A DNA stretch of 64,000 nucleotides from an uncultured Candidatus Bathyarchaeia archaeon (GCA_964399485.1 CAYNQS010000007.1:12662-76661); one strand, 5' to 3'; numbered from the stretch's first letter, positions 8,432 to 45,071 are shown. The notes: generated by a model not told the origin, from the sequence alone. Numbers and translations: made by a program.

Positions 8432-8572
8432 AGATGAAGCATAATCACGTGCTCATCAAACCATTTTGGTAATAATTAAATGCAATGATGACCATATTAT
8501 ATATGGGATCTTCAAAAACGTCGGGAATACCTACGTCTTTTGGCTTCCCGCGGAATCAGTTGCCTGTGCAGG

Positions 8573-17977: not shown

Positions 17978-19909
17978 TTAGATTGCGAGTAGCCTGAATG
18001 CTATGCCGCCTACAAGCAGAGCGAATAAGATTTCGAGAACAGTGATTAACAGTGCTTTTTTCCATCCGAACTCTTTAACCAATGCACCTATAGTAGCTAC
18101 GCATGGGATGTACAGCATAACCACCAAGGTGAATACTATCATCTGAGCTGGAGTCATAACCTGAGCAAAGTTTGTGGTTCCAAAGAGCGTCGCAAGCATA
18201 ATCAGCGTTAACTCCTTTCTCAGCACACCGAAAAGCAGCGCTATCCCCGTGACTGCTGGCAATCCCAGCCAAGCAACAGTCACAGGACTAAGTATGCTCT
18301 CGATTGGCGCTAGTAAGTTTGCAACCTCTACAAGTTTGATTACGAAGCTGCCTGCGATTATGAGGGGAAACGCCATCACTATGAATTCTCGCAGCCTGAA
18401 CCATGTTTGCTTAGCAACTGTTGGTAGGTGTGGTATTCTGTAGTCGCTCATTTCCATTATCAGTTCGGTTGGCTCACCGGGCAATGCTTTGAACGCTATT
18501 CTTCCAAGAAGAAAGATGATGATCAGGTTGAAGATGTACAGAGCCAACGCCCACTCTATGCCTACGTGGGTTCCGACCAGTCCAAGGATGATGACTGATG
18601 TTGCGGCGCAGGGGACAAGAGTGACAACGAAGGCGGTTAGCAGTCTTTCTCTTGTGGTTTCCATTATTCTGCATCCTAGGCACCCTGGAACGTTGCAGCC
18701 GAAGCTGAGCATGACCGGAATGAAGGCTTTTCCATGTAAACCCATTTTATGCATTATGTTATCCATCAGAAAGGCGATTCGGCTTAGGTATCCTGAATCT
18801 TCGAACAGATACAAGATGAAGTAGAACGGAAGAATGTATGGCAGCGCCACTGTGATGCCGCCGATAATTCCCTCCATGACCCCTCCCCAAATCAGTTCTC
18901 CAATGATTCCTGTCCCTAGAACAGTATCGAAAGCTGGCTTCAAACCAAAAAACCCGTCACCTAAAAGAGCAGATGTGAAGTCTCCGAAACTGAATATGAC
19001 AACAAAAACTGCGAGAACCGTCGCTAACATAATTGGGAAACCAAGAATTCTGTGTGTTGTCACTCTGTGCAATGTTTCTCTCAGAGGAGTCTTCAAGGGC
19101 TCCGTTATCTTTTGAATTTCACCTGAAACCTTGCTTGCAACTTGGTATCTCTCAGAAGTGACAACAGTTGGACAGGAATGACCACGAAGTTCCTCAAGTT
19201 CTCCCCTAAACCTTTCCGCAGTTGCCACAATCTCGGGGCTTACTCCAAGAACATCTTTCTCAACCTCCTCATCTTCCTCCAGAAGTTTTATTGCAACCCA
19301 TCTAGCCGGGTACCTCAACTGAATTTTGCTGAGAAGTATGATTAGGTCTTCAATTCTTTCCTCAATTTGTTTTCCGTATCGTGGCTTCAGAGGCTCCATT
19401 TTCGTTTTCTTCTCGATAACTTCGACGGCTGTTTCCAGCATACTGTAGATGCCCTTTCCACTCACCGCAACTGTTGGAACAACTGGCACCCCTAGAATCT
19501 TCTCTGCCTTCTCATAATCAACTATGATTCCCTTTTTCTTAGCCATGTCTACTTGGTTTACGGCTATGAGCAGAGGAGTTTCCAGTTCAAGAAGCTGCAG
19601 CGTGAAGAACAGGTTTCTTTCGAGAAGGGAAGCGTCTACAACGTTTATCACCAAATCAGGCTTTTCGGTGGCGATGTACTCCCTTGAGATCAGCTCCTCT
19701 ATGGAGAATGTGGACAAAGAATAGATTCCGGGCAGATCGATGATGTCTATGGTGTAACCCTTGAAGTGTAGGGTTCCCTCGGCTTTTTCAACTGTTTTCC
19801 CTGGCCAGTTTCCAATATGCTGATGTAAGCCTGTCAACTGATTGAATATAACAGATTTTCCTACGTTAGCGTTTCCTGCCAACGCAATTCTAAAATGCTT
19901 GTTGCTCAT
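17978..19909 (-). CDS. feoB: Ferrous iron transporter FeoB
   Basis: GNANVGKSVIFNQLTG G-domain followed by a polytopic permease; 643 aa. Confidence 0.95.
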   Translation of the reverse strand: MSNKHFRIALAGNANVGKSVIFNQLTGLHQHIGNWPGKTVEKAEGTLHFKGYTIDIIDLPGIYSLSTFSIEELISREYIATEKPDLVINVVDASLLERNLFFTLQLLELETPLLIAVNQVDMAKKKGIIVDYEKAEKILGVPVVPTVAVSGKGIYSMLETAVEVIEKKTKMEPLKPRYGKQIEERIEDLIILLSKIQLRYPARWVAIKLLEEDEEVEKDVLGVSPEIVATAERFRGELEELRGHSCPTVVTSERYQVASKVSGEIQKITEPLKTPLRETLHRVTTHRILGFPIMLATVLAVFVVIFSFGDFTSALLGDGFFGLKPAFDTVLGTGIIGELIWGGVMEGIIGGITVALPYILPFYFILYLFEDSGYLSRIAFLMDNIMHKMGLHGKAFIPVMLSFGCNVPGCLGCRIMETTRERLLTAFVVTLVPCAATSVIILGLVGTHVGIEWALALYIFNLIIIFLLGRIAFKALPGEPTELIMEMSDYRIPHLPTVAKQTWFRLREFIVMAFPLIIAGSFVIKLVEVANLLAPIESILSPVTVAWLGLPAVTGIALLFGVLRKELTLIMLATLFGTTNFAQVMTPAQMIVFTLVVMLYIPCVATIGALVKEFGWKKALLITVLEILFALLVGGIAFRLLAI

Positions 19910-20205
19910 CTTTCTACATCCACTAGAATTCTGCTAGCCATTCCTCTGCCTATAGCCAACCTTGAACCTCTAACGCTGACTTCTAAGGGTCCATGGAAAG
20001 GCGCTGATTTTACCACAGTTACCTTGGTGCCTGGAGTTAGACCCAAGTCGCTGAGTCTTTTGGCGAAGCGAGCGACGCTAAAATGTTTTCGCCAACCTCT
20101 TCTCGCTCTATGTCCGCAATTTCCTCTGTGCTCTGAACTGAAATCTGTAGAGGTTATGACCCCAGTTTCACCATTCCTCAACGCAGTTAATGGCAGATTC
20201 ATCAA
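19906..20205 (-). CDS. feoA: FeoA-family small protein
   Basis: 99 aa with an SH3-like FeoA pattern (..LSDLGLTPGTKVTVV..). Overlaps both the feoB start and the dtxR stop. Confidence 0.8.
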   Translation of the reverse strand: MMNLPLTALRNGETGVITSTDFSSEHRGNCGHRARRGWRKHFSVARFAKRLSDLGLTPGTKVTVVKSAPFHGPLEVSVRGSRLAIGRGMASRILVDVER

Positions 20206-20888
20206 TTCTTCACTTCTCCCCCATTCTTCTTAACGTAGATTATCGACGCCAAGTTAGGATCAATTGTACAGCTTTTTCCCTCAACAATGATTGCTAAAGA
20301 ACCTCCAGGAACTTTGTTTTCAACTTGCACCCGCTTTCCAGGTGTAAGGTTTAGTCTAGTAAGTTGTTGTAGCGTCTCAGTTCTCTCTTCAGTTATCTTT
20401 ACGATAACGCCACTGACGTTGGTGCCGAGTTTGCTGAGAGGCATGGTTTCTTCTTCAAAGATTCCTCCACAACTTGTCGGTATCGGGTTTCCGTGAGGGC
20501 ATCTTTTCGGGTGCCCTAAGGCTTTCTCTAGTGGCTTAACAATTTCTGGAGAGAGGGCGTGTTCTAGCTTGCAGGCTTGGTCGTGAACTTCGCTCCAATC
20601 CAAGTGCAAAATGTCTGTTAGCAGTCGTTCTGCGAGGCGGTGTCTCCTCAGGACACTTGAGGCGATTTTTCGTCCATTCTCGGTTAATTTTACTCCTTTG
20701 TACGGCTTATGAGTAACCAGTCCTTTCCTCTTCAGATTCTCTATGGTGTTTGTAACCGAGCCCGGAACAACGTTCAAGTTTTTGGCAAGGTCCATGGTTC
20801 TGGCAAAGCCTTCCTTCTGCTCTAAACGGTAGATTGCCTCAAGGTATTCTTCGGCTTGGTGGGTGACTGCTGTTTCTTCGGCGTTCAT
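20202..20888 (-). CDS. DtxR/IdeR-family metal-dependent repressor with a C-terminal FeoA-like domain
   Basis: EEYLEAIYRL..VTNTIENLKRKGLV..HRLAERLL..HPKRCPHGNPIP. Confidence 0.85.
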   Translation of the reverse strand: MNAEETAVTHQAEEYLEAIYRLEQKEGFARTMDLAKNLNVVPGSVTNTIENLKRKGLVTHKPYKGVKLTENGRKIASSVLRRHRLAERLLTDILHLDWSEVHDQACKLEHALSPEIVKPLEKALGHPKRCPHGNPIPTSCGGIFEEETMPLSKLGTNVSGVIVKITEERTETLQQLTRLNLTPGKRVQVENKVPGGSLAIIVEGKSCTIDPNLASIIYVKKNGGEVKN

Positions 20889-21085
20889 GAGTTAATCCGC
20901 CTGAAATTACGACCTCTCGTAGTTTTACTACAAGCAGCACCATCACAGATAAACGTTACTCTTCAAACAAAAATAAATCACTCAAAAACTATCCACTCAT
21001 CAAGCAAGCAACGCCTCAACCGAGCTGAATGTTACTGCACAAGAATTAGCGGTCACTTGTATTTGTAGCATATCAACTTTTGAAG

Positions 21086-21691
21086 TTATGATTCTTCTTG
21101 CTTGAAGTGCTTTTGGAAGACCTTATGTATTTCTTCGGGGTTTTCCAATATAACGATGCCATCCATGGCGGCTAGCTTTTTGGTGTTTTCAACATCTTCT
21201 TTTCTCACCCGTATTCTCATTTCACTGCCGTCAGGAAGTTGCGTGACTGTCACTCCCTCCTTGTAGTCGCAGGGCAGTATATAGACGGGTACAAAGCTTT
21301 TCAGAGACATTATTGTTGCGTTACATAGTAACGTGTCTGCTATTCCCGTTGCAATCTTTGCAACCGTGTTTGCCGTTGTTGGGGCAATCAGCAAAAATTC
21401 GATTTTTCCGCTCTGCAGCTGAACAGCAAGAGTGGGCACATTCGAGTTGACTTCAACCCGGACTTTGTCAAAAATTTCGTTCAAATCCTTAGCTAAACCG
21501 TAAAAATGTATTACCTGATTTCCTGCCTTCGAAAGATACACTGTTATTCTGATTTCGTCTTGATACTGCTTTTTGATCTGTTTCATAGCCTCAATTACTT
21601 CAACAAGCCGGTCTCCGCTACCTGTGATTCCCCACGCAACCCTTTTCGCTTTTTTCTGTTTCTTTTCCGTTTCCGCAGTTACAACAGCCAT
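21086..21691 (-). CDS. HFCD/AfpA-type archaeal flavoprotein
   Basis: VAWGITGSGDRL..LIAPTTANTVAKIATGIADTLL pattern. Confidence 0.7.
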   Translation of the reverse strand: MAVVTAETEKKQKKAKRVAWGITGSGDRLVEVIEAMKQIKKQYQDEIRITVYLSKAGNQVIHFYGLAKDLNEIFDKVRVEVNSNVPTLAVQLQSGKIEFLLIAPTTANTVAKIATGIADTLLCNATIMSLKSFVPVYILPCDYKEGVTVTQLPDGSEMRIRVRKEDVENTKKLAAMDGIVILENPEEIHKVFQKHFKQEES

Positions 21692-23877: not shown

Positions 23878-24627
23878 TTATTGTTCTAGTTCTTTGACCA
23901 GTTTCACTATCTGTTCTATCACATACTCGTTTATTTTTTGTCCCTTCTCAGCAGTCGCTATTGTCGGGTCGCCCATAACTCCACTCGGGAAGTATCGTTC
24001 AGGGTCTGAGACAACCTCGAATCGGGGCAAATCCGGATAGCTCCTAGTTCCTTTCCCCTTTATCAGGTCTGATCGGATAGCCATCACCCTCGAAGTTTCG
24101 ATGGTACCCGCGTGGGAATCTCGGTCATCAAACTCTTTGCCTCTAAGGTCGAAGGCGAAGTCATAATCCGAGCAAACCATAATTCTGGGCCTATTCTCTT
24201 CGTTCTCGTGGTTAGTTACGACCGTTTTGGCTGCAAGTTTAAGCGCAATCATATGTGATCGACCAGCATGCCCAGTGATGATCAGCAGTCTCTTGAATCT
24301 GTTACGGATGAAGTCTTCCAGAATGTCAGTCATTATGCTCCTCAGCGAATCAAAAGTTATCGTTATTGTGCCCGGAAAGTTTCTTGTAGAACTGCAGAGA
24401 CCATACCGCAGGGGCGGCGCAACCAAGCAGCCTGTTTTTCGGGCAACACCCAACGCAACATACTCTGCCTGAAGACTGTCTGTACAAAGCGGCAGATGAA
24501 TTCCATGCTCTTCAATGCTTCCACATGGGATAATCACAACTTTTCCTTCTTCAGCCGCCTTCTCTGCTTCAGGCATACTCAACTCATCAAACCATAATGT
24601 TCTGTTTTTGTTTGAATCTGCACACAT
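23878..24627 (-). CDS. Creatininase-family amidohydrolase (possibly ArfB-type deformylase)
   Basis: ..IIPCGSIEEHGIHLPL.TD.. and ..GHAG.. patterns typical of the family. The specific role is not determinable from sequence. Confidence 0.75.
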   Translation of the reverse strand: MCADSNKNRTLWFDELSMPEAEKAAEEGKVVIIPCGSIEEHGIHLPLCTDSLQAEYVALGVARKTGCLVAPPLRYGLCSSTRNFPGTITITFDSLRSIMTDILEDFIRNRFKRLLIITGHAGRSHMIALKLAAKTVVTNHENEENRPRIMVCSDYDFAFDLRGKEFDDRDSHAGTIETSRVMAIRSDLIKGKGTRSYPDLPRFEVVSDPERYFPSGVMGDPTIATAEKGQKINEYVIEQIVKLVKELEQ

Positions 24628-24674
24628 GTTCTCTCTTTCTCCTTTTTTGTCACAGAAACTAAGTGTACACTATT

Positions 24675-25736
24675 TCAGTCTTTGATGACCTTTAAGGTTT
24701 GTTCGTAGTAGCGGGGACCATAACTTAGGGTAATTTGATGGAATACGTCGGTGTCAGTCACTACTTTCTCAAGGTTTCCCTCAACCAGCACTCTTTCACC
24801 CCGTTTCGCTTGCATTCTGAATTCTTCCATGTACGAGAATATCCGTTCGATGTCATCAACTTCTGGTCCGTCTAAAACATCTTTCACTTCAATCTGGTAG
24901 ATGGATGGAATAAACGGTGCATCCTTGTCGTCGGTTATCTCCGCCACTGCTTTAATCCAGCCTACATGGAATATTCGCGTGGATGGGGTGAATTCGTTGC
25001 AGATTTCATTCCAGTCCTTCACTGGCTCAAACTCTGCCTTAACAACTCTCCCCGCATCTTCAGAATCAAAGTATGCGTAAATCATTTTTCTCCGCTGATG
25101 CCAAACATACTCCTTCAAACTGTAATTCACGAACTTCCAATCTTTCCCCGCAACAGCCTTCATGCCTTCAAATTCATTCCGCAAAGCAGGGTCTTCCCTG
25201 TAAAGAGTTTCCAGCGCCTCGCAGAGCCTGTTTATGTTTTCCTTGCCGTAAACAATGAAATCCAAGTCCGAAAAGTTGGGATGATAAAAGCCATGCAGAA
25301 GCGAGCCGAACACCCCAAAACCTTTTTCTGTTAAGCCTGACCGGGACGAAACCCGCGAAAACAAATCCTGTAACGCCTTCAACAGAACATCATCAGGCTC
25401 TTTTGCAAGCAGCCGCTGCAACCCAACATCAGGTTTACGCAGTTCCATTATGTCGTCTTCTTTTACGCCTACCAGACACTTCTGCAACGGCTCATAGAAA
25501 ACTTTGTACTGAGGAAACCTGTTTAGAATAAGCTTCATTCCCTCGTCTGCAAAAAACTTGTAATAAATTAGCTTTTCTTCTCCTCTTCTTGCCCTAGGAT
25601 TAGTTGACCTGAAAACAGTTGGTGACGCATACTCTGGGTCACACACATAGGCGCCTGAAGGATGAATGTAACCGTAAACCCTGAAAACTATGCCGTCCTC
25701 TGTGAGTATTGCGTCACGGTCTCGCAGCTTCAGCAA
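24675..25736 (-). CDS. Uncharacterised Pol-beta-type nucleotidyltransferase, paralogue A
   Basis: FGVFGSLLHGFYHPNFSDLDFIVYG minimal NTase signature. TTG start preceded by GAGGTG. Homologous over its full length to 25889-26923 and 29107-30153. Confidence 0.6.
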   Translation of the reverse strand: MLKLRDRDAILTEDGIVFRVYGYIHPSGAYVCDPEYASPTVFRSTNPRARRGEEKLIYYKFFADEGMKLILNRFPQYKVFYEPLQKCLVGVKEDDIMELRKPDVGLQRLLAKEPDDVLLKALQDLFSRVSSRSGLTEKGFGVFGSLLHGFYHPNFSDLDFIVYGKENINRLCEALETLYREDPALRNEFEGMKAVAGKDWKFVNYSLKEYVWHQRRKMIYAYFDSEDAGRVVKAEFEPVKDWNEICNEFTPSTRIFHVGWIKAVAEITDDKDAPFIPSIYQIEVKDVLDGPEVDDIERIFSYMEEFRMQAKRGERVLVEGNLEKVVTDTDVFHQITLSYGPRYYEQTLKVIKD

Positions 25737-25888
25737 CCAAACACCTCACAACCCAGCAATCATATTAGGCTCCTAATAACAGTGCATTGTTGAAAACAGT
25801 CTTTTTTCTGTTTTTGCAGGAAAGTTGATGATCTGTTTTCCGAAAGTTTGGGTGTTGTATTGTTTTTATCTGTTGGTTGTTAACCAAA

Positions 25889-26923
25889 TCAAACAGGCTC
25901 AAGGTACTCTTTCTCTCTTGTAGCCGTGCCCACAACAACCTGATAGCTGACTTCGCCTGTTTCAACGTTTTCCACCCGCTCCAGCGTCCCCGAAACCTTG
26001 ATTCTGTCTCCCCGCCTAGCAACGTTTCTGTAGTAACCAATCATCGATAACACCCTTGCTGGAACCTGTTCCTCAGACAGTTCTGACGCTGAATCGTCTG
26101 GCTGATAGTCTCTAATCGGGTAGATTGCTGGCCTGAACATATTTTCGCTGTCATCGACAACCTCGCAACTGAAACTAACGTTCTTGACTGGCGTGTACTT
26201 CATTTTTCCGTGCTGAGCATCTATTTCCTCATATTTTCTTACAGCATTGTACACGAAACGCCTATCATTATAGCGTCCCCGATGCCTTCTTGCATAATCG
26301 ATCCTTTTGGTGCAAACATACGAGAACACGCCCCCATCAGCAAGCCTGTTAACTGCAGCTTCTAACTTCTTGAAGTTCTGGGAACCATAAATCACAAGAT
26401 CAATATCCGAATACTCAGAATGCATATCCAATCCAACAGACCCATGGATACCAAAATCTTGGAGGGGCACTTCCGATTCTGCGGAGAGAAGCAAAACCAA
26501 CTCCACAGTCTCTTGCTGTAAAGCATCTTTCTTTTCTTTTTTGAATATCGCCTGCAGGCACTCGCTCGGCAAGTAAACTCTCTCTATATGGTCAAGCGGA
26601 ACGCTTAAGACTTCTTTACCCCTGAAGGGGCAGCAATAGAGGTAATGAGGAAAGCTGCTTCGAAAAGTTTCCAGAAATTTCTGATAGTTCTGGGCTGTGT
26701 ACAGTTTTTGGGGTCTGGAGAGTTCTATGTTTCCGAGTTTCCATTTCTGCTTGAGAAAGCGTATAGGGAAATGACATGCCAAGCTGGAGGGTATGTATTT
26801 TAAGAAGGCGAAAACCCGATTGTCCGGGTGCTCATATCCAAAAACGTAGAAGATGAAGCCCTCTTTGGTGAGGAGGGTCTCGCCGTCTCTAGGAATCCAA
26901 TCTTTCGTTGCCAAACCGTTCAT
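25889..26923 (-). CDS. Uncharacterised Pol-beta-type nucleotidyltransferase, paralogue B
   Basis: [24 protein letters not shown]. The start was chosen at ATG 26923 by alignment with the paralogues; the ORF is open to TTG 26989. Confidence 0.6.
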
Positions 26924-27050
26924 CCTCGAAGCTAAGACAGCAACCTTGCAGCCCATTATCGCCTTTAAACATTCCTGAAATGTAATCAACTAAAAAGAGA
27001 ATAGATTAGCCCACAAAATTTGTGGCATTGAAAAAGGTGGAATCATGAAT

Positions 27051-28094
27051 TTAGTTGTCGACATAGGTGGTTTCTGAGGTTACTGAGGTTCCATTTGCTG
27101 TGATGGGGTACGCTCCACACGTTTTGCACACGGTGGCGTTTTCGGGAACATTAGAATTGCATTGGGGACAGGTTCTAGCATCAGGGTCTTTGGCATAGGG
27201 TACACCAACAACTTCTCTGTAGGCTTCATAGTAAATCAGTTGCTCCTTATCCCTGATTGTGACCTTGTCTGTTTCCAGAATCTTCTTCCTTCTAGCTGCA
27301 AATTCTGAATCAGAAATCTTCTTCGCCAAATATTTGGGAAGAATCGTGGTGCCGGAACCGACTTCGATGGGGTTCTTATCTCTCCATCTGACCTCTGGCG
27401 GAAGCACATCCTCGTAAGCTTTGCGGAGAATCCATTTGCCCCAAACTTCTCCTCTCTCCTCCTGAACATTATATCTTGGGTCCATGTTCATCGCAAATTT
27501 CTGGACTTCCGGGTCCAAGTAGGGGGCTCTCACTTCGATGCCTAAGGATTTTCCAAGAGGAACCGAGGAAAACGCCATTATTTCCCACATTTTCTTTAGC
27601 ATAGCGCTCAATTTTTCTTTGTTTCCTACATGACGGTAATACATGTGATAGCCCGCGAAGAGTTCATCTGCTCCGTCTCCAGTAATCAGTTTAGTTGCGC
27701 CGTAAGATTTGGCAAATTTCAGCCCAATCGTGATGGTGATGCTGTTGCGGACCTCCATGGGATCAAAGGATTCCAAAACTTTGACGACATCTGGAATTGC
27801 TTCGAATATTTCTTTTTCATCGAAGGGGTTAATGTAATGTTCAATGTTCAGTTGCTTAGCCATCAACTTGGCATATTTCAGGTCCAGCGCGTTGGCCTGT
27901 TTGAATGCACAGGTGAAGCCTCTGATGCGAACATATTTTGATACTATAGTTGCTAGAATACTTGTGTCTATGCCTCCGGAAAAGAGCATGTCTTTTGTCA
28001 GATTTTTCTTTACGGACTTTTCAAGTAGCGCCCGCAGTTCAGCAGCGACTTTGTCCACGTTTGCTAAGATGTCTTTTTTTTCTGCAGCTCCCAT
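27051..28094 (-). CDS. Stand-alone asparagine-synthetase-like PP-loop ATPase (no glutaminase domain) with a C-terminal zinc ribbon
   Basis: LFSGGIDTSILA PP-loop, ..ITGDGADELFAGY.., and C-terminal CPQCNSNVPENATVCKTCG. ATG 28094 follows AGGTG. Confidence 0.75.
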   Translation of the reverse strand: MGAAEKKDILANVDKVAAELRALLEKSVKKNLTKDMLFSGGIDTSILATIVSKYVRIRGFTCAFKQANALDLKYAKLMAKQLNIEHYINPFDEKEIFEAIPDVVKVLESFDPMEVRNSITITIGLKFAKSYGATKLITGDGADELFAGYHMYYRHVGNKEKLSAMLKKMWEIMAFSSVPLGKSLGIEVRAPYLDPEVQKFAMNMDPRYNVQEERGEVWGKWILRKAYEDVLPPEVRWRDKNPIEVGSGTTILPKYLAKKISDSEFAARRKKILETDKVTIRDKEQLIYYEAYREVVGVPYAKDPDARTCPQCNSNVPENATVCKTCGAYPITANGTSVTSETTYVDN

Positions 28095-28344
28095 TCCATA
28101 CACCTTTATTCAATAGAACAATCAAATATTACAGTTTTATATATAAATATTTTCCTATAATTGAAGAAAACAGCGTGTAGATGAACAATAAATGAACAAA
28201 CATTCATGAAAACATTCTTTCGTTGATTGTACAATTGAATGTTTAACCCTTTTTCACCGTATCTTAGTAATCAACTAGAACAAAAGTAACTGTTAATAAA
28301 CAATTAGGATAATTATTCACACTCAGTCTAGAAAGTGAGCCATT

Positions 28345-29049
28345 ATGGAAGATCAACCATTTTGGAAAGCAAAAATAGCATTTCTATGTTACCTTGCATT
28401 GGCTGCTGGACTTCTCGTGGGAAGCATAATAGTGGCAATCATACTGCGTGGGTTGGGATTCGACTTTCGGGAATCGAGTTTTCCACTTGCCATCCTATCT
28501 CTTCCAATCACCGAAGGCATAATCCTCGGAATCACGCTTCTGTTTGCTAAATCTGAAGGTGCAAGTTTACGAAAACTTGGTTTGAAAAAACCAAGCCTCA
28601 GAACAATAGTGATTGTATCCTTTGCTGCAGTGCTTCTTCTCTTTTTAGCTGGAAGCATTTCTTTAGTTGAAGAAATTGCTCTCGGTCCAGATCCAGAAGC
28701 GGAAATTCTTGCAGAGGCTATACTGCCCAAAGACCCGTTACAATTGATTGCCCTAATTGGCATCTCATTAGCCCTAGTTGGACCAGCCGAAGAATTAGCT
28801 TTCAGAGGTTTTGTGCAGAGGGGTTTTGAAAACTCGTTTGGAAAGACAGCAGGTCTGGTGATCGCCTCTATCTTGTTTGGTCTCTTGCATGGACTAAATT
28901 CTTTACGGGCTATCCTTCCAGTAACTGTCGTCAGCCTGTTTCTGGGCTATATCTGGCAGAAAACTGACGGAAACACAGTTGCTTCAGCTTGGACCCATGG
29001 ACTGTACGACGCGATAACCATAACAATAGCGTTTTTTGCTTACGCCTAA
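28345..29049 (+). CDS. CPBP (CAAX-type) intramembrane glutamic protease family protein
   Basis: ..PAEELAFRGF.., ..FGLLHG.. and ..HGLYD.. motifs within a polytopic membrane protein. Confidence 0.8.
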   Translation: MEDQPFWKAKIAFLCYLALAAGLLVGSIIVAIILRGLGFDFRESSFPLAILSLPITEGIILGITLLFAKSEGASLRKLGLKKPSLRTIVIVSFAAVLLLFLAGSISLVEEIALGPDPEAEILAEAILPKDPLQLIALIGISLALVGPAEELAFRGFVQRGFENSFGKTAGLVIASILFGLLHGLNSLRAILPVTVVSLFLGYIWQKTDGNTVASAWTHGLYDAITITIAFFAYA

Positions 29050-29106
29050 AACAGTCAACCCAGCCTCGGTTAAGTATAATAGTGTCTTTTCGAGACTGTT
29101 GAGAGT

Positions 29107-30153
29107 ATGCGTGGCTTCAGGGACCGTGATTTCCTTCAAACCAGTGAAGGCTTCTTTTTTTGTGTAGTTGGCGCGTTACATCCACCCGAACGGGTCATCT
29201 CCTACATTAAGTACGTTCCCTCAGAGTCTGGCATCTGGGGAAAAGACGAAAAAAAGTTCAGCAGAATATTACAGAAATACACGATTCCGAATCTGCTGGA
29301 AACCTTCAGCTATCTGGAGGCTAACTATCCCCATTACCTGTTCCATTCCCCAGTGGATAACATCACCATAACCGCGGTTCCTCACCGGAACATAAAGGAA
29401 CATTTCAAGCCAGAAAGAAAGCTGTCTCAACTGAGGCAAGCCCCGCAGCTAGATTCATTACAGCAGAAGCTGGTTAGATTCACAAGGTTTTTGGAGGAAA
29501 CGAGCGGTGTTCGCGAGGAGTCTTTTGGGGTAACCGGTTCACTTCTTCTCGACATTCATCAGCCCAAATTTTCAGATATTGACGTAACCGTGTATGGCGT
29601 AAAGGACAGCTGGCTTCTGCACAAAGCCTTGAGCGAAAACCGCTATTCTAAGATGCCTATGAGGCGTCTCGAAGAAAAAGCTCTCAAAGAATGGTGCACC
29701 AGAAAAACTAGGCAGTATCCTTTGTCACCGGCGGAAGCATCGAAGATTTATGAACGAAAGTGGAATCTAGGGGTTTTTGAGGATAAATGGGTTTCTATCC
29801 ATTCGGTTAAGCTTGAAAGCGAAGTTACCGGAGAATACGGCAAATTGACCTATCATCCGTGTGGTCAAGTGACCATCCGAGCAGTTGTTCGCAACAACAC
29901 TGACTCGCTTTTTCTTCCCTCAGTCTATAAAATCGAAGAAGTGGAGGTTCTGGAAGGTCCCCAGCTTGGCAAGGTCACCGAGGTAGTTTCTTACGAGAGT
30001 CTATATGACAGCCTAGCTGAAAACGACGAAACCATCCAAGCCAAAGGCAAACTTGAACGTGTCACAGAAAAGGGAACCAGCCGAGAACACTATCGCGTTC
30101 TGGTAGGTTCTCCTGAAGGCAAAGGAAAAGAATACATAAAATTAAGGGATTAA
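29107..30153 (+). CDS. Uncharacterised Pol-beta-type nucleotidyltransferase, paralogue C
   Basis: FGVTGSLLLDIHQPKFSDIDVTVYG. Its N-terminal RDRDFLQTSEGFFFCVVGALHP matches paralogues A and B. Confidence 0.6.
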   Translation: MRGFRDRDFLQTSEGFFFCVVGALHPPERVISYIKYVPSESGIWGKDEKKFSRILQKYTIPNLLETFSYLEANYPHYLFHSPVDNITITAVPHRNIKEHFKPERKLSQLRQAPQLDSLQQKLVRFTRFLEETSGVREESFGVTGSLLLDIHQPKFSDIDVTVYGVKDSWLLHKALSENRYSKMPMRRLEEKALKEWCTRKTRQYPLSPAEASKIYERKWNLGVFEDKWVSIHSVKLESEVTGEYGKLTYHPCGQVTIRAVVRNNTDSLFLPSVYKIEEVEVLEGPQLGKVTEVVSYESLYDSLAENDETIQAKGKLERVTEKGTSREHYRVLVGSPEGKGKEYIKLRD

Positions 30154-30170
30154 CCGCAAAAAAAGGCGGG

Positions 30171-31115
30171 CTACTCCAGATTCAGCACTTCTTTCAGAAC
30201 AGCTTGATAAGGACCAAGCTTGCCTCCGTAATTTCCAGCCGTAATCTTAATAACTCCCGGAACCTTCACAGCAGCCTTTATTCCCTCAGCCATAGCCTTT
30301 TTTACAGTTTTCTGGTTCAAACCGTTTATCACTATCTCGTAGACGCTCCCCACGTTATCGGGAACTTTAGAATCTTGCACCAACTTCCTGATGGTGGGAC
30401 AGTATGGATGATTGGTGGATGCCGGAAGCTTATAATTCAGTGACCCCACCTTAGACCCTGCCCTGCAGAGACCTCCCGGAAAGGGCATAATTGCCCCTCT
30501 AACATTCTTGCTGATTGCTTCTTTGGCATCCTCTGATGCTTTAAGCGCAGTCTTCCAGTCCTCTGCTAGGATGAGCATGTTTCCGCTGGCAACAGCCCTC
30601 ATGATGCCGAAGTTGTCTTCAACAATGAATTCGCCCTCCATAACTGGGATGCGCCAAACTTTTCTTCCCGCAACCTTGGCTTTCTTTTGGAAGCCGTCTC
30701 CGAAGAGGCGTAGGCTTCTTCCTATCTTCACTCTGCGTTTAGCTGTGGGTAGACCATCGAAGGCTGCTGTTGTGGGACATGTCATGATGCATTGTCCGAT
30801 TCTCAGGCTCATCTGGTGTTTGAGGTTATTTCTTGAGTTGTGGTAGATTTGGATAATGGCTCCTGGGCGTCCGTCTGGTGTTTCTTTGGGAGATACGAGA
30901 GTTTCTACTGCCGCTTCTGCTGGTGACATAATAATTGACGATGCGAAGCCAGCGGCGGTTCTTGCCGCGATTAAAGCCCATTTCTCGTTAGCGGCTGTTA
31001 TCAATACTCTGCCTGCCCACATGGGAAACATTTCGGCGAATGTATCTTCTATTATTGTTCCGTTTTCTAGAATGTATCCCCTTTCGTCTTTTTTGACTAC
31101 TTTAAGGTTTGTCAT
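30171..31115 (-). CDS. ftr: Formylmethanofuran--tetrahydromethanopterin N-formyltransferase
   Basis: ..IEDTFAEMFPMWAGRVLITAANEKWAL..; 314 aa, the typical Ftr length. Confidence 0.9.
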   Translation of the reverse strand: MTNLKVVKKDERGYILENGTIIEDTFAEMFPMWAGRVLITAANEKWALIAARTAAGFASSIIMSPAEAAVETLVSPKETPDGRPGAIIQIYHNSRNNLKHQMSLRIGQCIMTCPTTAAFDGLPTAKRRVKIGRSLRLFGDGFQKKAKVAGRKVWRIPVMEGEFIVEDNFGIMRAVASGNMLILAEDWKTALKASEDAKEAISKNVRGAIMPFPGGLCRAGSKVGSLNYKLPASTNHPYCPTIRKLVQDSKVPDNVGSVYEIVINGLNQKTVKKAMAEGIKAAVKVPGVIKITAGNYGGKLGPYQAVLKEVLNLE

Positions 31116-31165
31116 TTTATTTTAGTCTCCATGCTCGCTTTTTTCTGAACAGCTTATATGGTGTT

Positions 31166-31614
31166 TCACCGATTGGTGTCTGTCACATATTCAAATCTCT
31201 GTTCTATAAGTTTTGTCATTTCCTCAATTGTTGTGGCTGTCTTTGATTCTTCGGTTCTGTGTCCTTTAGGCTAACCGTGTTCAGATTGAGTGCAAGTTCT
31301 TTTTCATTCTCTTGTTGGTGTTGGCTCCAAAAACTAAATCGTGTTCCTGCGGATAGTGTTTCAGCATTGTTAAGAGCTTTTGGCTACTTCGAGCTATCTA
31401 GTTTAGACCCTTTTTCTGCGTTGTTTATGGCTATGATTCTACGCTCGAAATCCATATCTATCCATTTTAAGGCTACAACTTCTCCGCTTCTAGCTCCGAT
31501 TTCCTTCAAAGTCTACAAGGATAGCTGTAGTATAGGACCGGCGCACGCTATCAGCATGTTAAGCTTTGATTCCGTAGGAATGAAATGACAGCACAGTAGT
31601 CTTTCAACTCCCAT
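31166..31614 (-). pseudogene. Decayed tyrosine recombinase (archaeal integrase family) with frameshifts, stops and an internal deletion
   Basis: Own three-frame reading of the minus strand. Fragments found: ..FIPTESKLNMLIACAGP..; ..EIGARSGEVVALKWIDMDFERRIIAINNAEKGSK..; ..LLTMLKHYPQEHDLVFGANTNKRMKKNLHSI..; and a C-terminal ..KTATTIEEMTKLIEQRFEYVTDTNR. The fragments are in different frames and the H-x-x-R..Y catalytic block is missing. Confidence 0.6.
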
Positions 31615-36562: not shown

Positions 36563-37504
36563 TCAGGGGTAAATGTTGTCGAATATTCTTGGGAACGTAG
36601 AAGCTTCTCTAATATGTTTGAGCTTGCAGATCCATTGTATCAATCTTTCTAGACCTATCGCAAATCCCGCCTGAGGAATAGGACCGTGTTGCCTAAGATC
36701 CATATACCACTGTTGATCCTCTGGTTCTATCTTCTCCTCCGTCATCCTTTTCAGCAACACCTCTTTTTTGTCTATCATTTGACCCCCTCCTGCAATCTCT
36801 CCATAACCTCTTGGGGCAAGCAAGTCTACAGATAATGTTAGTTCTGGCCTTTGTGGATTAGATTTGTAGAAGAACGTCTGGATACTAACTGGAAAATTTG
36901 TAATAAAGAATGGTTGATCAAATCGTTGACTAATTTTTTTCTCCATTTCCCAAGTTAGCTCTTCTCCCCAAAAGATGTTATTTCCATCCTCTTGCAACAT
37001 TTCGATGGCCTCATCATAGGTTAACCGTGGCAAAGGAGCCTTCACTTTCATGGTATCTTTAGCATTACGACGCAATAACTTCAACTCCTCTTTCGCATCT
37101 TTGGATAAACTTTGGCAGATGTGAGCCACCAACTCCTCCTGAACCCTTATTATGTCATTAAAACCACACTTAGCAGCCGCTTCAATCCGCCAATATTCTG
37201 TTAAATGTCGTTTTGTCCTCAATTTTTCTGCTCTAAAGGCAGGGGCAATCGTATAGACTTTTCCTAAACTAGCAACAAAAGCATCTGCGTAGGGGTGAAG
37301 TCCTTGTGTAAGGTAAGCTTTTTTGTCAAAATATTTCACCTCAAAATAGCCGGCCCATTCTCCAACGGCGGGAATTAGTGTTGGTCCATGAACTTCTGTA
37401 AAACCTTGGTTATTGAACCAACATCGGGCTGAATTAACCACTTTAGCTCTGACTTTTAGTACCGCTCTTTTTTTCTGATCCTGCAAATTGTGAGTAGAAA
37501 ACAT
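36563..37504 (-). CDS. Class II aaRS catalytic-core paralogue lacking an anticodon-binding domain (archaeal AsnA-type asparagine synthetase-like)
   Basis: ..FRAEKLRTKRHLTEYWRIEAA.. (motif 2), ..GGGQMI.. and ..GFAIGLERL.. (motif 3). Only 313 aa. Confidence 0.7.
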   Translation of the reverse strand: MFSTHNLQDQKKRAVLKVRAKVVNSARCWFNNQGFTEVHGPTLIPAVGEWAGYFEVKYFDKKAYLTQGLHPYADAFVASLGKVYTIAPAFRAEKLRTKRHLTEYWRIEAAAKCGFNDIIRVQEELVAHICQSLSKDAKEELKLLRRNAKDTMKVKAPLPRLTYDEAIEMLQEDGNNIFWGEELTWEMEKKISQRFDQPFFITNFPVSIQTFFYKSNPQRPELTLSVDLLAPRGYGEIAGGGQMIDKKEVLLKRMTEEKIEPEDQQWYMDLRQHGPIPQAGFAIGLERLIQWICKLKHIREASTFPRIFDNIYP

Positions 37505-37976: not shown

Positions 37977-39041
37977 CTATGATTGTGCTGCATCCAAAGG
38001 TGATTGGTCACGCTTTTGTGCGCCGCTAAACTTGCCGATAAACCGAGTTTCGAACACAAAGACGATGGTAAGGTAGATGAACATCCAAGCAATGAAAAAG
38101 AATTCTCCATAGAACTCGTGGAAAAGGTCGGATAATAGTTTACCGCTATTGATTCCTATTATATAAAATGTTACTATTCTGAGGATGTTAACAAAGAATG
38201 TCCCAGCCGCACCTACTGCAACATAGATTATTTTTCGCATCCGGGATATGCTAGTGCCCCTGAGGAACAGCATAATCATAAAGGAATACAGGAAGAGGCT
38301 GTGGCTTCCCGCACAAGACCAAGCAATAATAGCCTCACAGGATCTCCCACCGCCCATACAGGCCTCGAGATATAAGCCCTTTTCGCCTGCTGGCAATATT
38401 TGAGTTGTGTACCCTAAGAGATTCAGGATTGCAGCCACTCCGTAGGTGGTTATGGGAACAAGGGATTGCAGAACAGTGAATGTTCCATTGGGATAGAATG
38501 TATCGATCATGTAGAAGATGCCCACGCCTCCGACAAAAAAGGCTGATACAGAGAATGTCTTCAGTCCCCGAACTCCATACAGAAGCCAAATCGACGCCAC
38601 AAAGAAAACTGCGAAGATAACATACTCGAGAGAGAAAGGCCAAGAATGCGTCAAATACCATGTCTTGCCATCTATAATGGGCACGCCAACGGCTCTTCCC
38701 AATTCCACTATTCCAGAGTGTAAACCGAAGTTTAGTCCCACAGCATAGACTGTTGGCAGAAGCAGGATTACTGCAGCTAACACTGTTTTTTTGGTCCAGA
38801 ATGTGGTGTGCTCAGTTTTGAGGTTTTTCCATCCGAGGATTGCCTCCAAAAAAAGCAGCCAGAGAAAGAGAAAGTATGGTGCTCTGCCCTTCCACAGATA
38901 ATCGAAGGAGCCAGAGTCTATGACGTAAAGAATAATCAGTGGCACAATGAACGCTGCGAAAACGAGAACAGTCTTCAAAAAAAAGTAACGGTCAATTTCG
39001 GATAGAAGCCTCTTTAGCTGTTCTTTTGATGGGATTATCAT
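37977..39041 (-). CDS. Exosortase/archaeosortase-family polytopic membrane protein
   Basis: ..AWSCAGSHSLFLY.. (Cys motif), ..FFVNILRIV.. (Arg motif) and ..HEFYGEFF.. (His), in the expected order within a multi-TM protein. Confidence 0.6.
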   Translation of the reverse strand: MIIPSKEQLKRLLSEIDRYFFLKTVLVFAAFIVPLIILYVIDSGSFDYLWKGRAPYFLFLWLLFLEAILGWKNLKTEHTTFWTKKTVLAAVILLLPTVYAVGLNFGLHSGIVELGRAVGVPIIDGKTWYLTHSWPFSLEYVIFAVFFVASIWLLYGVRGLKTFSVSAFFVGGVGIFYMIDTFYPNGTFTVLQSLVPITTYGVAAILNLLGYTTQILPAGEKGLYLEACMGGGRSCEAIIAWSCAGSHSLFLYSFMIMLFLRGTSISRMRKIIYVAVGAAGTFFVNILRIVTFYIIGINSGKLLSDLFHEFYGEFFFIAWMFIYLTIVFVFETRFIGKFSGAQKRDQSPLDAAQS

Positions 39042-40745: not shown

Positions 40746-41642
40746 TTAGGCTAGTTTTCTTGCTATTTCATAGGCGACCTTGTAATCTACTATGCCACTT
40801 GGAGACTCCACTGCCCGCTTAAACATCTCGCCTTCAATCTGAATTTTAAGCGGACCTATCGCTAGGGCGCCTATTCCAAATTTGCCGGGAGTAAACTCCT
40901 TACCTTTATGGGTGGCTTTCAAGCCCTCAATACCCAAAGGCGGAACAGCGTTGATGTCTCCAAGCACCTTAACTTTCTTTCCATACTTCTCAAGTATGCT
41001 CAGAGGCAAAAGCTGAATACCTGCAGCGCCACACGCCAAAACTACGTCAGCATCTTTTATGGCTTCGCCAATCTCCTCAGGAGTACCTGCTTGGGCACCA
41101 CACACCTGTTTTGTTCCCAGTTCCTCGTTGATTTTGTCTGCAGCAGCCGTTGCTCGGTCTAGCTTACGTGAGGTGAGAACAACGTTTCCCCCCTCGCTGG
41201 CATATAATTTTGCTGCAACCACTCCGACCGGTCCAGTTCCTGCCAGAATTGCCGCAGTCTTTCCTTTGAAGTCTCCAAATCCTTTTTCCTTGAAGAGTTT
41301 CATGGTTTTCGCTACTGCAGAGGACGCAGTTGTGTATGCTCCTCTTGGGTCTATGATTACGGATAGCTCAAATGGCGGAAACATGGACTTCTTCACAACT
41401 TCTAGGATTCCAAGGGCTTTTTCAACATCTTGACCGCCTATGAACACGTTAGTGTGTTTTGCTCCTTCAGGTCCTCGAGGAAACATGGCATCTTGGATCA
41501 GTCGTTTTGCGTCAATGATTTCAACATTACTATAGTTAATTATCTGTGCGTCTGGGTAAAGATCGATGGCAACCAACATATCAAAGGGGCTTGCGTATTT
41601 GTCTGTGTCCAAAAATATTATAACATCTTTTCGGCTTGACAA
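40746..41642 (-). CDS. NAD(P)-dependent methylene-tetrahydromethanopterin dehydrogenase, MtdA/MtdB-like
   Basis: Collinear with methylotroph MtdA as I recall it: N-terminal ..IIFLDTDKYASPFD.. against ..LLFQFDTDATPSVFD.., GKTAAILAGTGPVGVVAAKL..VVLTSRKLDRATAAADKIN and ..NAVPPLGIEG... 298 aa; TTG start. Confidence 0.8.
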   Translation of the reverse strand: MSSRKDVIIFLDTDKYASPFDMLVAIDLYPDAQIINYSNVEIIDAKRLIQDAMFPRGPEGAKHTNVFIGGQDVEKALGILEVVKKSMFPPFELSVIIDPRGAYTTASSAVAKTMKLFKEKGFGDFKGKTAAILAGTGPVGVVAAKLYASEGGNVVLTSRKLDRATAAADKINEELGTKQVCGAQAGTPEEIGEAIKDADVVLACGAAGIQLLPLSILEKYGKKVKVLGDINAVPPLGIEGLKATHKGKEFTPGKFGIGALAIGPLKIQIEGEMFKRAVESPSGIVDYKVAYEIARKLA

Positions 41643-44672: not shown

Positions 44673-45071
44673 ATGCCAAAGTTGAATGTCCTAGTTTTAA
44701 CGGGTCGCACTATTGACCAAGGCAGAGGAAAAGAAATGGGAAAACTTTCGGACGTCTACTTGAAAGATGTGACCCAATGCCAAATCGACCCAGAAGATAT
44801 GAAGACACTCAACCTGAGACAAAACGCCAACGTTAAAGTCACAACAAAGTCTGGTAGTGTTGTTCTAAGAGCCGTCAAATCGCTTAGGGGCCCTCATCCC
44901 AACATGATTTTTATTGCCTACGGTCCTTGGGCAAGCATGATCTCTGACCCCGAAAGCCATGGAACAGGTATGCCCTCATTAAAGGGGATGTCTGGAACGC
45001 TTGAACCTGCACCTGACGAAAAAGTGTTAACTATACAGGAGCTAGTCAATCAACTCAAAATGGAGGCTTAG
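44673..45071 (+). CDS. fwdD: Formylmethanofuran dehydrogenase subunit D
   Basis: MPKLNVLVLTGRTIDQG..; small molybdopterin-dinucleotide-binding beta-barrel-type protein heading the fwd cluster. Confidence 0.85.
   Translation: MPKLNVLVLTGRTIDQGRGKEMGKLSDVYLKDVTQCQIDPEDMKTLNLRQNANVKVTTKSGSVVLRAVKSLRGPHPNMIFIAYGPWASMISDPESHGTGMPSLKGMSGTLEPAPDEKVLTIQELVNQLKMEA

Follow-up and report, generated by a model that had tools for sequence, protein, structure and literature searches.

Paired Pol-beta-type nucleotidyltransferases of archaea are encoded beside tetrahydromethanopterin genes and may help to build the side chain of the cofactor

Gene content of the locus

We report the analysis of a group of five genes from an uncultured Candidatus Bathyarchaeia archaeon, three of which encode mutually homologous nucleotidyltransferases (NTases), here named A, B and C, and two of which, lying between B and C, encode a PP-loop ATPase domain and a CPBP intramembrane protease. 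The genes occupy positions 24675 to 30153 of a stretch of 64,000 nucleotides (nt; GCA_964399485.1, CAYNQS010000007.1:12662-76661), and it is this whole stretch that we refer to as the window. A preliminary description, made from the sequence alone, had delineated the three NTase open reading frames (ORFs) of about 350 amino acids (aa) and had read the five genes as a single pathway for RNA, nucleotide or peptide modification. All five ORFs are recovered here (Table 1); our own reading is that the NTases belong to a widespread archaeal family with a probable role in building the side chain of the one-carbon (C1) cofactor tetrahydromethanopterin (H4MPT).

Table 1. Positions of the genes and features of the window that are discussed in the text
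Feature	Position	Strand	Basis
Archaeoflavoprotein AfpA	21086-21691	-	NCBIfam TIGR02699 8.5e-73, 243.6 bits (cut-off 192)
NTase paralogue A, subfamily A, 353 aa	24675-25736	-	ORF, Pfam NTP_transf_2, subfamily clustering
NTase paralogue B, subfamily B, 344 aa	25889-26923	-	ORF, orthologue start, subfamily clustering
PP-loop protein (AsnB-type synthetase domain without glutaminase, C-terminal CxxC...CxxC zinc ribbon), 350 aa	27051-28103	-	Pfam, 1ct9 alignment
Intergenic, AT-rich, between the divergent strings PP-B-A and CPBP-C	28104-28344	.	Sequence
CPBP (Rce1-like) intramembrane glutamic protease, 234 aa	28345-29049	+	Pfam Rce1-like 1.2e-18
NTase paralogue C, subfamily C (the most widespread type), 348 aa	29107-30153	+	AlphaFold2 model, Foldseek, residue conservation
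Ftr (formylmethanofuran:H4MPT formyltransferase)	30171-31115	-	NCBIfam NF002554, 413 bits (cut-off 297)
Mtd-like gene (Mpt_N domain)	40746-41642	-	Pfam
FwdD	44679-45053		Pfam
FwdB	45075-46520		NCBIfam 563.6 bits, above cut-off
FwdA	46517-48220		NCBIfam 800.1 bits, above cut-off
FwdC-like GXGXG protein	48222-49040		Pfam
Mch	49167-50177		Pfam, tblastn

The PP-loop gene lies upstream of B and the CPBP gene upstream of C, in each case on the same strand, and C converges with the Ftr gene that follows it. In the spacer between the two divergent strings, a TATA-like element, TTTTATATATAAATA, stands about 30-45 nt from the start of the PP-loop gene. Translation of A begins at a TTG with GAGGTG just before it. 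The start of B is the ATG at 26923 (MNGLATKDW...), which follows a GAGG and is upheld by the orthologues, the mechanically called ORF extending further, to a TTG at 26989. Base composition is even throughout the segment, and the closest orthologues of the window proteins are 70-90% identical proteins of metagenome-assembled genomes (MAGs); for A, the orthologues in Bathyarchaeia have 72-88% identity.

A tRNA scan found none, an Rfam scan of positions 24000-31500 gave no match, and neither did PADLOC with any of the five proteins. The gaps at 25737-25888 and 28104-28344, which the preliminary description had pointed to as places to look for conserved small ORFs, and that at 26924-27050 yielded no candidate for a precursor peptide: over 64 related loci, the small ORFs in them are conserved no better than intergenic DNA. 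One ORF of 40 aa between B and A (25765-25887, minus strand) is detected in 15 related loci at 60-82% identity; since this is below the conservation of the flanking proteins, it is probably a non-coding spacer.

An archaeal family of four subfamilies

A, B and C are, as had been proposed, strongly diverged paralogues related end to end: the BLASTP E-values are 7e-20 for A and B, 4e-27 for A and C and 1e-39 for B and C, with 24-27% identity along almost the entire proteins, and 46 columns of the three-way alignment are invariant. An exhaustive profile search extends the family to 1402 representatives of clusters at 50% identity (E<=1e-3), 388 of them at E<=1e-30, nearly all of the 1402 being 330-360 aa long and matched over their full length. 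In GTDB, sampled with one genome per species, 344 relatives were found, the best 80 of which define the loci (cited by L numbers where they must be told apart) on which all the locus counts below are based. These 80 loci are drawn from Bathyarchaeia and from Asgard archaea (Odin-, Baldr-, Borr-, Hod-, Jord-, Frey-, Hel- and Promethearchaeota), together with Aenigmatarchaeota, Nitrososphaeria, Geothermarchaeales, Thermococci and Thermoprotei. The family is found in Methanocaldococcus jannaschii, Bathyarchaeia, many Asgard lineages, Nitrososphaeria that carry Fwd genes, and MSBL1.

The methanogen member, MJ1086 of M. jannaschii, is listed as an 'uncharacterized protein' (UniProt Q58486), and the JGI annotation of orthologues reads 'predicted nucleotidyltransferase'. 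MJ1085 (L081, 8475-10004), which shares 4 nt with the start of MJ1086, encodes a protein of 509 aa with degenerate repeats, acidic/aromatic in kind, and, at the C-terminus, a Zc3h12a/NYN RNase-like domain (7.5e-5).

When the 162 members from the 80 loci are clustered with the three proteins of the window, they fall cleanly into four subfamilies, C (80 proteins), D (55), B (16) and A (14), the window's own proteins being included in these numbers. Members of one subfamily share 46-56% identity and those of different subfamilies 23-31%. A, B and C each represent a different one of these four subfamilies, which diverged long ago within a single family of archaeal enzymes. The most frequent composition of a locus is C with D (49 loci), followed by C alone (14), ABC (6), BC (4), ABCD (4) and ACD (2), and the junction from D to C is often an overlap of 4 nt. 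The basic and widespread unit is an adjacent D-C pair, not a triplet. A and B also occur outside Bathyarchaeia, as an adjacent A-B pair in a Korarchaeota/Thermoproteota MAG and, in the case of A, with D and C in a contig of Hermodarchaeota. No D gene lies within the 64-kb window.

The three paralogues side by side had earlier been taken to suggest a hetero-oligomer or three substrate specificities. The triplication turns out not to be the basic state of the family; the hetero-oligomer remains plausible for its adjacent, often overlapping pairs. Because such pairs stand next to each other and all members keep the catalytic GS...DxD residues, the translationally coupled paralogues (D with C, A with B) probably form hetero-oligomers or act on different acceptors.

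Two of the individual loci call for comment. A contig of 3 kb binned as 'Deltaproteobacteria bacterium' (L067) carries D, C and an Ftr of the archaeal type with 60% identity to that of the window, and is probably mis-binned archaeal DNA. In L010, the orthologues of C (8001-9040) and of a DJ-1 gene (2234-2801) are each split into two to three frames, which are likely to be frameshifts of a long-read assembly and not pseudogenes.

Domain architecture and the Pol-beta core

An AlphaFold2 model of C, calculated with 98 homologues, has a mean pLDDT of 95.7 and a pTM of 0.92 and predicts three domains. The first, at about residues 1-100, is rich in beta strands and bears the motif RDRD...T.EG..F.V.G..HP; the second, at about 100-245, consists of a helical segment and a minimal Pol-beta NTase core; the third, at about 247-348, is modelled as an OB-like five-stranded barrel. 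Seven residues of the second domain (G141, G144, S145, S156, D157, D159 and E239) are invariant in all four subfamilies, as are H25, P26 and E317 outside it. The motif of the Pol-beta superfamily, hG[GS] followed by [DE]x[DE], is represented in A, B, C and all the subfamilies by G141, G144 and S145 with D157-x-D159. As a candidate for the third catalytic carboxylate, which in the superfamily lies on a later strand of the core sheet, E239 is invariant but comes just after the strand 227-234, and acidic residues on that strand itself are confined to subfamily A (E230 and E232). The N-terminal, GS...DxD and C-terminal motifs quoted in the preliminary description are all present in A, B and C, and its assignment of a minimal Pol-beta core holds.

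The sequence models agree. Pfam NTP_transf_2, with a cut-off of 21 bits, is matched by A (5.3e-6, 27.2 bits) and by B (2.6e-4, 21.8 bits), C remaining below the cut-off (0.053, 14.3 bits), and 48 of 50 diverse family members match it at E<=1, the best at 9e-10. On these motifs and matches, we place the predicted catalytic core in the Pol-beta NTase superfamily. Invariant residues in the N-terminal and OB-like domains suggest that these domains contribute to a common binding site for a common scaffold, and the subfamily-specific residues near the catalytic sheet (positions 143, 230 and 232) suggest different acceptors or different roles of the two partners.

Comparison with solved structures gives matches at the level of the fold. 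Foldseek searches of the Protein Data Bank (PDB) with the whole model and with residues 1-245, the latter modelled a second time with a pLDDT of 93.1, returned nothing at E<=1e-3, and the N-terminal domain found no match. With the whole model only OB folds were listed (RPA, SSB and the anticodon domain of LysRS, E 0.01-0.1), the best being RPA (1e-2, probability 1.00) and SSB (1.4e-2), with target-normalised TM scores of 0.44-0.57. The barrel is built of strands 247-263, 272-283, 290-295, 309-321 and 327-333 with a helix at 265-268, that is, between the first and second of these strands and not between the third and fourth, so that the canonical OB topology is not evident from the secondary structure alone. 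We therefore describe the C-terminal domain as an OB-like barrel with support at fold level, which is as far as the earlier claim of an OB-type barrel can be carried. With residues 1-245, the matches were to poly(A) polymerase, ANT(2'')-Ia, DNA polymerases beta and lambda, CdnE, Cid1, GLD-2 and the CCA-adding enzyme, all of them weak and generic (E >= 0.14). Among solved NTase folds, ANT(2'')-Ia comes nearest (4xje; E 0.15, probability 0.87, a weak match), an enzyme that nucleotidylates a hydroxyl of a small molecule.

The family has no NCBIfam model, and sequence searches of the PDB with A and with a profile of 98 family sequences gave nothing meaningful, the best match being a doublecortin at E 0.7. 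Literature searches (for COG1665, for MJ1086, for methanopterin together with CitG, triphosphoribosyl or nucleotidyltransferase, and for methanopterin biosynthesis since 2015) retrieved no paper characterising the family, none that mentions MJ1086 or COG1665 and none that assigns a nucleotidyltransferase to methanopterin biosynthesis. The preliminary description, which knew of no characterised system with this composition, can thus stand on this point, and we have found no described counterpart of the three-domain architecture combined with paired subfamilies.

The best, though weak, core matches of the family, to ANT(2'')-Ia, ANT(4') and MntA-type NTases (4xje as above; MntA and ANT models at E 0.01-0.06), share with it a minimal core and the nucleotidylation of hydroxyl groups. 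They raise the idea of minimal-NTase antitoxins of the MntA type or of an array of defence nucleotidyltransferases, and 9 of the 50 members do match the MntA antitoxin model weakly (best E 0.013) and one a CBASS cyclase model. Yet none of these matches is significant, the proteins are 340-360 aa long with two additional conserved domains, they come in pairs, and their genes are accompanied neither by a HEPN or other effector partner nor by resistance or toxin-antitoxin genes, PADLOC finding no match. The distribution of the family is vertical and resembles that of housekeeping genes, with conserved metabolic neighbours, and we regard a function in defence as extremely improbable.

The PP-loop and CPBP genes are insertions

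The two genes between B and C were correctly recognised in the preliminary description. The PP-loop protein matches Pfam Asn_synthase at 1.7e-44 and aligns to residues 209-512 of Escherichia coli AsnB (1ct9; 8.7e-26); since the alignment starts at residue 209, it has no glutaminase domain. At its C-terminus stands CPQC...CKTC. A full AsnB it is not: a class II glutamine amidotransferase domain is lacking at its N-terminus, and its 168 bits with NF006949 fall short of the cut-off of 499; it also weakly matches DUF7411 (7.5e-5). The CPBP protein scores 67.6 bits with PF02517 (cut-off 22.4) and reaches no named NCBIfam subfamily.

It is the combination of these two with the NTases into one pathway that the comparison of loci speaks against. 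The preliminary description had itself named single-copy homologues without linkage to PP-loop or CPBP genes as the finding that would count against its proposal, and this is largely what is seen. Both genes stand beside the NTases only in L001, L002 and L010, and CPBP alone in L003, all of them from the closest Bathyarchaeia relatives; the other 76 of the 80 loci have neither. In more distant Bathyarchaeia (L004, L006, L009, L011, L012 and L046), A, B and C are adjacent with neither gene present. The spacer between B and C in relatives without the insertions is mostly much shorter, measuring 27-85 nt at 5 of 12 junctions, and at 4 of the 12 the mechanical ORF calls apparently overlap.

A scan of metagenomes with the PP-loop protein gave 64 loci, almost all with a PP-loop protein of 66-99% identity, in which the order Ftr-C-CPBP-PP-B-A-creatininase-DJ1 is stable and the PP-loop gene is always directly upstream of B. 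This constancy within one clade of Bathyarchaeia, and the fact that the PP-loop protein of L001, L002 and L010 is more conserved (81-85% identity) than the NTases, are arguments for a dedicated pathway of three NTases, PP-loop enzyme and protease acting on RNA, nucleotides or peptides. Against it, besides the 76 loci, stand two metagenome loci that have the PP-loop gene without CPBP (L135 and L137), the reverse case of L003, the distant PP-loop relatives (27-37% identity) that have no NTase neighbour, and the failure to find a conserved precursor-peptide-like small ORF or a PADLOC match. We consider such a pathway very unlikely; the five genes do not form a conserved system.

The PP-loop and CPBP genes are independent, later and clade-specific insertions into the divergent promoter region between B and C, and two separate events are indicated because each gene occurs without the other. 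The PP-loop enzyme may have an accessory role specific to the clade. The Korarchaeota-type contig with the A-B pair (L158) has an Asn_synthase/DUF7411 gene (19653-21026) 8.6 kb away, with 24% identity to the PP-loop protein of the window, which is perhaps a coincidence.

Conserved gene neighbourhoods

All ORFs of the 80 loci were clustered and the recurrent clusters then identified with Pfam and NCBIfam (Table 2). An H4MPT or C1 gene lies within 8 kb in 59 loci, and in 47 the NTases have nearby a member of the set of H4MPT biosynthesis or candidate biosynthesis genes, if CitG-like, DUF1464 and DUF447 genes are counted in. The co-location includes established genes of the pathway, RFAP synthase, DmrX, the DHPS-like enzyme and MptA all being identified above their NCBIfam cut-offs.

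Table 2. Recurrent neighbours of the NTase genes in the 80 loci
Neighbour	Loci (of 80)	Identification or position
CitG-like	39	Pfam CitG 5.5e-63; far under the CitG/MdcB equivalog cut-offs (54 against 280 bits)
ECF S-component-like membrane protein	21	Directly upstream of D
Ftr	21	Convergent with C
DUF1464	12	Pfam
AfpA/DmrX-type flavoprotein (dihydromethanopterin reductase)	11	TIGR02700, 301.8 bits (cut-off 251)
F420-ligase-like	10	Pfam
beta-RFA-P synthase (RFAP synthase)	10	NF040726, 399.5 bits (cut-off 328)
DHPS-like	9	TIGR00284, 344 bits (cut-off 257)
DUF447	9	Pfam
MptA	8	TIGR00294, 308 bits (cut-off 220)
FwdD / FwdB / FwdA	8 / 8 / 6	By cluster
MptN-like	7	NCBIfam
MptE-like	6	Pfam

The commonest neighbour, a gene of the CitG family, directly adjoins an NTase gene in 22 loci, is at most three genes away in 34, and is present in 18 of the 29 loci that extend at least 4 kb to either side; in a further locus, L084, it is adjacent in divergent orientation. 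In Jord-, Baldr- and Helarchaeota (L060, L064 and L074), a co-directional array is formed by RFAP synthase, DUF1464, DmrX, the DHPS-like gene, MptA, D and C, which L075 repeats minus DmrX; in L074, MptA overlaps D and D overlaps C by 4 nt each. In the Bathyarchaeia of L021 and L029, a single string of DUF447, the CitG-like gene and D is found next to MptE-like, DmrX, DUF1464, RFAP synthase and DHPS-like genes. Other Bathyarchaeia, with Baldr- and Odinarchaeota, have the ECF S-component gene, D and C followed by a convergent Ftr, the CitG-like gene usually being just upstream in the Bathyarchaeia; Ftr is a conserved neighbour of subfamily C across these three groups. In loci of the Nitrososphaeria type, the D-C pair is followed by FwdDBA.

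Because the arrangement of the genes differs in this way between lineages, inherited synteny is an unlikely explanation of the linkage. This bears on the proposal that the family consists of tRNA or RNA 3'-end nucleotidyltransferases or of RNA-modification enzymes, with the OB barrel binding nucleic acid and the proximity to cofactor genes a coincidence of synteny. The proposal can draw on the structural neighbours of the OB-like domain, namely SSB, RPA and the anticodon-binding domain of LysRS, on weak matches of 17 of the 50 members to a poly(A)-polymerase palm model and the RNA-directed enzymes in the Foldseek list (poly(A) polymerase, GLD-2, Cid1 and the CCA-adding enzyme), and on the overlap between MJ1086 and a gene with an NYN RNase-like domain. 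The structural matches, however, are all weak (E >= 0.01) and generic for their folds, neither the window nor the 80 loci contain tRNA or RNA-processing genes, and the linkage to H4MPT genes recurs in varied orders in Thermoproteota and several Asgard lineages, with the overlap with MptA among them, which descent does not account for. We judge a role in RNA metabolism to be quite unlikely, and the modification of RNA, nucleotides or peptides that had been suggested earlier receives no support from the context, the conserved neighbours being genes of H4MPT biosynthesis.

TiaS, the archaeal tRNA-Ile2 agmatidine synthetase, invites comparison since it too is a multi-domain protein in which an ATP-using catalytic domain precedes an OB fold, and its gene lies near MJ1086 and near the NTase pair in some Asgard loci. 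The catalytic domains are nevertheless different (TiaS_TCKD/FLD against a Pol-beta NTase), there is no sequence similarity between the proteins, and no member of the family matches the Pfam models of TiaS. In four loci of Jord- and Freyarchaeia (L059, L060, L073 and L074), a string on the opposite strand, between C and the CitG-like gene, is made up of a protein of about 116 aa (cluster c17), a TiaS-like protein with a GVDDTDT motif (c24) and a coiled-coil protein (c23).

Several other neighbours deserve mention. The membrane protein upstream of D (cluster c2; L005, L009, L012, L014, L017, L026, L040, L057, L079 and others) has 230-320 aa and six helices; some members have no Pfam match at default thresholds and others match an ECF S component weakly (ECF-ribofla_trS 1.9e-8), and it may be the uptake component for a methanopterin precursor. 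The DUF1464 (ASKHA/butyrate-kinase-like), DUF447 and F420-ligase-like genes are embedded in H4MPT arrays (L060, L064, L074, L075, L021, L029 and L058) and are candidates for other unassigned steps of H4MPT synthesis. In one metagenome locus (L124), a CitG-like gene with 41% identity to the reference follows B in the usual place of A, giving the order Ftr-C-CPBP-PP-B-CitG-like, so that the CitG-like gene is linked to the window's own clade as well. A gene for a Kdo/RIO-like kinase of 535 aa converges with the NTase pair in L091.

A proposed role in H4MPT side chain synthesis

H4MPT is the C1 carrier of methanogenesis, of the anaerobic oxidation of methane and of the archaeal Wood-Ljungdahl pathway. 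The side chain of methanopterin ends in ribitol, an alpha-linked ribose-5-phosphate and (S)-2-hydroxyglutarate, the last attached via a phosphodiester, and to our knowledge the enzymes of the late steps of its synthesis (the formation of ribitol, the attachment of ribose-5-phosphate and the coupling of hydroxyglutarate) are unassigned. A related piece of chemistry is found in bacteria, where CitG and MdcB draw on ATP to furnish dephospho-CoA with an alpha-linked 5-triphosphoribosyl group, and CitX and MdcG, transferases of the Pol-beta type, turn the triphosphate so formed into a phosphodiester with the hydroxyl of a serine, pyrophosphate being released.

Because the tail of methanopterin contains the same unit as the product of the CitG/CitX type, we propose a scheme of two steps. 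The CitG-like enzyme would use ATP to place an alpha-linked 5-triphosphoribosyl group on a ribitol hydroxyl of the pterin-aminophenyl-ribitol intermediate. The D/C NTase would then take the ribose-5-triphosphate as its 'NTP' and pass the phosphoribosyl-cofactor to (S)-2-hydroxyglutarate at its hydroxyl, with release of pyrophosphate, the resulting phosphodiester being the end of the methanopterin side chain. The likeness to the bacterial systems lies in a CitG-family gene that stands beside a Pol-beta-type NTase with a GS...DxD motif and, on the chemistry proposed, in the alpha-linked ribose-5-triphosphate made from ATP and the phosphodiester and pyrophosphate that follow. The differences are also clear: the archaeal NTases are twice as long as CitX and MdcG, with added N-terminal and OB-like domains and paralogue pairs, the CitG-like partner is a divergent subfamily, and the companions are H4MPT genes instead of those of citrate lyase or malonate decarboxylase, with 2-hydroxyglutarate presumed as acceptor in place of a serine of an acyl carrier protein (ACP).

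Observations from bacteria fit such a scheme. M. (Methylorubrum) extorquens makes dephospho-H4MPT, which is without exactly the phosphate and the hydroxyglutarate (PMC8141765); in a methanotroph, a CitG-type gene lies beside mch and a glutamate ligase (PMC11533326). The orf5 of methylotrophs is no argument for the scheme, being the glutamate ligase MyfB and not a CitG homologue (PMC8141765).

From the gene context and the plausibility of the chemistry, we infer that the NTase family has a role in building the side chain of H4MPT-type C1 cofactors, a conclusion that we think somewhat more probable than its contrary. Stated in full, as H4MPT side-chain enzymes of a CitX/MdcG-like kind, it is the best overall explanation that we can offer, and we regard its chances as evenly balanced. 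The specific CitX-like step, the coupling of hydroxyglutarate, is put forward by analogy and more tentatively, as possible without being probable. The link of the family to methanopterin biosynthesis is strong and, as far as the searchable literature shows, previously unreported.

A number of observations weigh against the proposal. The family cannot be counted as CitX or MdcG by sequence: among 50 members there were no matches to the Pfam models of CitX and MdcG, and with the NCBIfam model of MdcG (NF002332) only two at E of about 0.08, the cut-off being 126 bits. The part that the CitG-like gene itself would play in H4MPT synthesis is argued from gene context. The window has no CitG-like, ECF S-component or D gene in its 64 kb, 21 of the 80 loci have no C1 gene in the flanks available, and H4MPT genes are missing around the Korarchaeota-type A-B pair. 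In M. jannaschii, where MJ1086 lies between MJ1085, which it overlaps, and the mevalonate kinase gene MJ1087, the neighbourhood gives no backing for a role in a cofactor pathway, and in Caldarchaeales-type and related loci (L086, L088 and L091) a PmbA/TldD-family gene is found 1-2.5 kb downstream of the NTase pair and H4MPT genes are otherwise lacking. Finally, the classical cell-extract work of R. H. White is reported to have found that phosphoribosyl pyrophosphate (PRPP) donates the ribosyl group and that hydroxyglutarate is added in a separate step that needs ATP; a PRPP donor and such a step would favour activation by an adenylyl group over the CitG route.

That variant keeps the pathway and changes the chemistry. 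One NTase would activate an H4MPT intermediate, for instance its ribose-5-phosphate, by adding an adenylyl or another nucleotidyl group, and the second paralogue would transfer the activated phosphoribosyl unit to 2-hydroxyglutarate with release of AMP; we rate this as unlikely. Spelled out by analogy with CofC and CofD, the activated species would be an ADP-ribose-like diphosphate and the paired paralogues would carry out two successive steps. In the synthesis of coenzyme F420, CofC and CofD join a unit derived from a 2-hydroxy acid to a ribityl/ribosyl chain by a phosphodiester after nucleotide activation, an analogous problem of a methanogen cofactor; the likeness is one of analogy only, since the folds are unrelated (MobA-like in CofC, a family of its own in CofD) and there is no homology. 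Adenylylation shares the gene context with the CitG-type scheme, and it suits the GS...DxD motif, intact in either partner of each pair as would befit two catalytic steps, the occurrence of some NTase pairs with no CitG-like gene nearby, and the ATP requirement and PRPP donor attributed to White's extracts. It does not explain, however, why the CitG-like gene directly adjoins an NTase gene in 22 loci, and no such intermediate has been described; the sequences do not separate it from the CitX-like route.

The kinship of the neighbour with CitG also allows a more literal reading, in which the NTase and the CitG-like enzyme would form a CitX-like holo-protein synthase that loads a phosphoribosyl-linked group on a serine of an unrecognised archaeal carrier protein. 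The adjacency would then mirror the bacterial citX-citG and mdcB-mdcG pairs, and the additional N-terminal and OB domains could serve to dock a protein. But genes for citrate lyase, malonate decarboxylase or an ACP-like protein are found in none of the loci, the companions are those of pterin and arylamine biosynthesis, and the CitG-like proteins fall far short of the CitG/MdcB equivalog cut-offs (Table 2), so that we think this most improbable.

The scheme for H4MPT can be extended to the arrangement in the window. The D-C pair and the CitG-like enzyme would supply the missing late steps of methanopterin synthesis, and the A-B pair with the PP-loop enzyme would add or amidate further groups of the tail, giving an undescribed methanopterin derivative; this is more speculative than the coupling step itself and we consider it rather doubtful.

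With its conservation, a confident structural model and a member, MJ1086, in a methanogen that can be cultivated, the family is a concrete and testable candidate for which a specific chemistry is proposed. Should the proposed role be correct, a gap in the biosynthesis of the cofactor would be closed, better genomic markers would be available for the use of H4MPT in uncultured Bathyarchaeia and Asgard archaea, and it would be explained why methylotrophic bacteria stop at dephospho-H4MPT. Should it be wrong, the family would stay a widespread archaeal enzyme of unassigned function with a new domain architecture.

The C1 genes of the window

The wider surroundings of the five genes are rich in genes of the methyl branch of the archaeal Wood-Ljungdahl pathway. 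To the Ftr gene beside C and the AfpA gene at 21086-21691, the latter sharing a family cluster (c5, by tblastn) with the DmrX-type dihydromethanopterin reductases of the Asgard operons, is added the H4MPT-dependent C1 island that extends from the Mtd-like gene to Mch, with unrelated genes interspersed, among them those of CysRS and a Y-family DNA polymerase.

Two further genes lie 8-10 kb from the CPBP and AsnB-like genes. One (37977-39041) encodes a membrane protein of the exosortase/archaeosortase family (Exosortase_EpsH 6.5e-13), and the other (36563-37504) a protein of 313 aa that consists of the catalytic core of a class II aminoacyl-tRNA synthetase only (tRNA-synt_2 5.7e-61) and is possibly AsnA-like.

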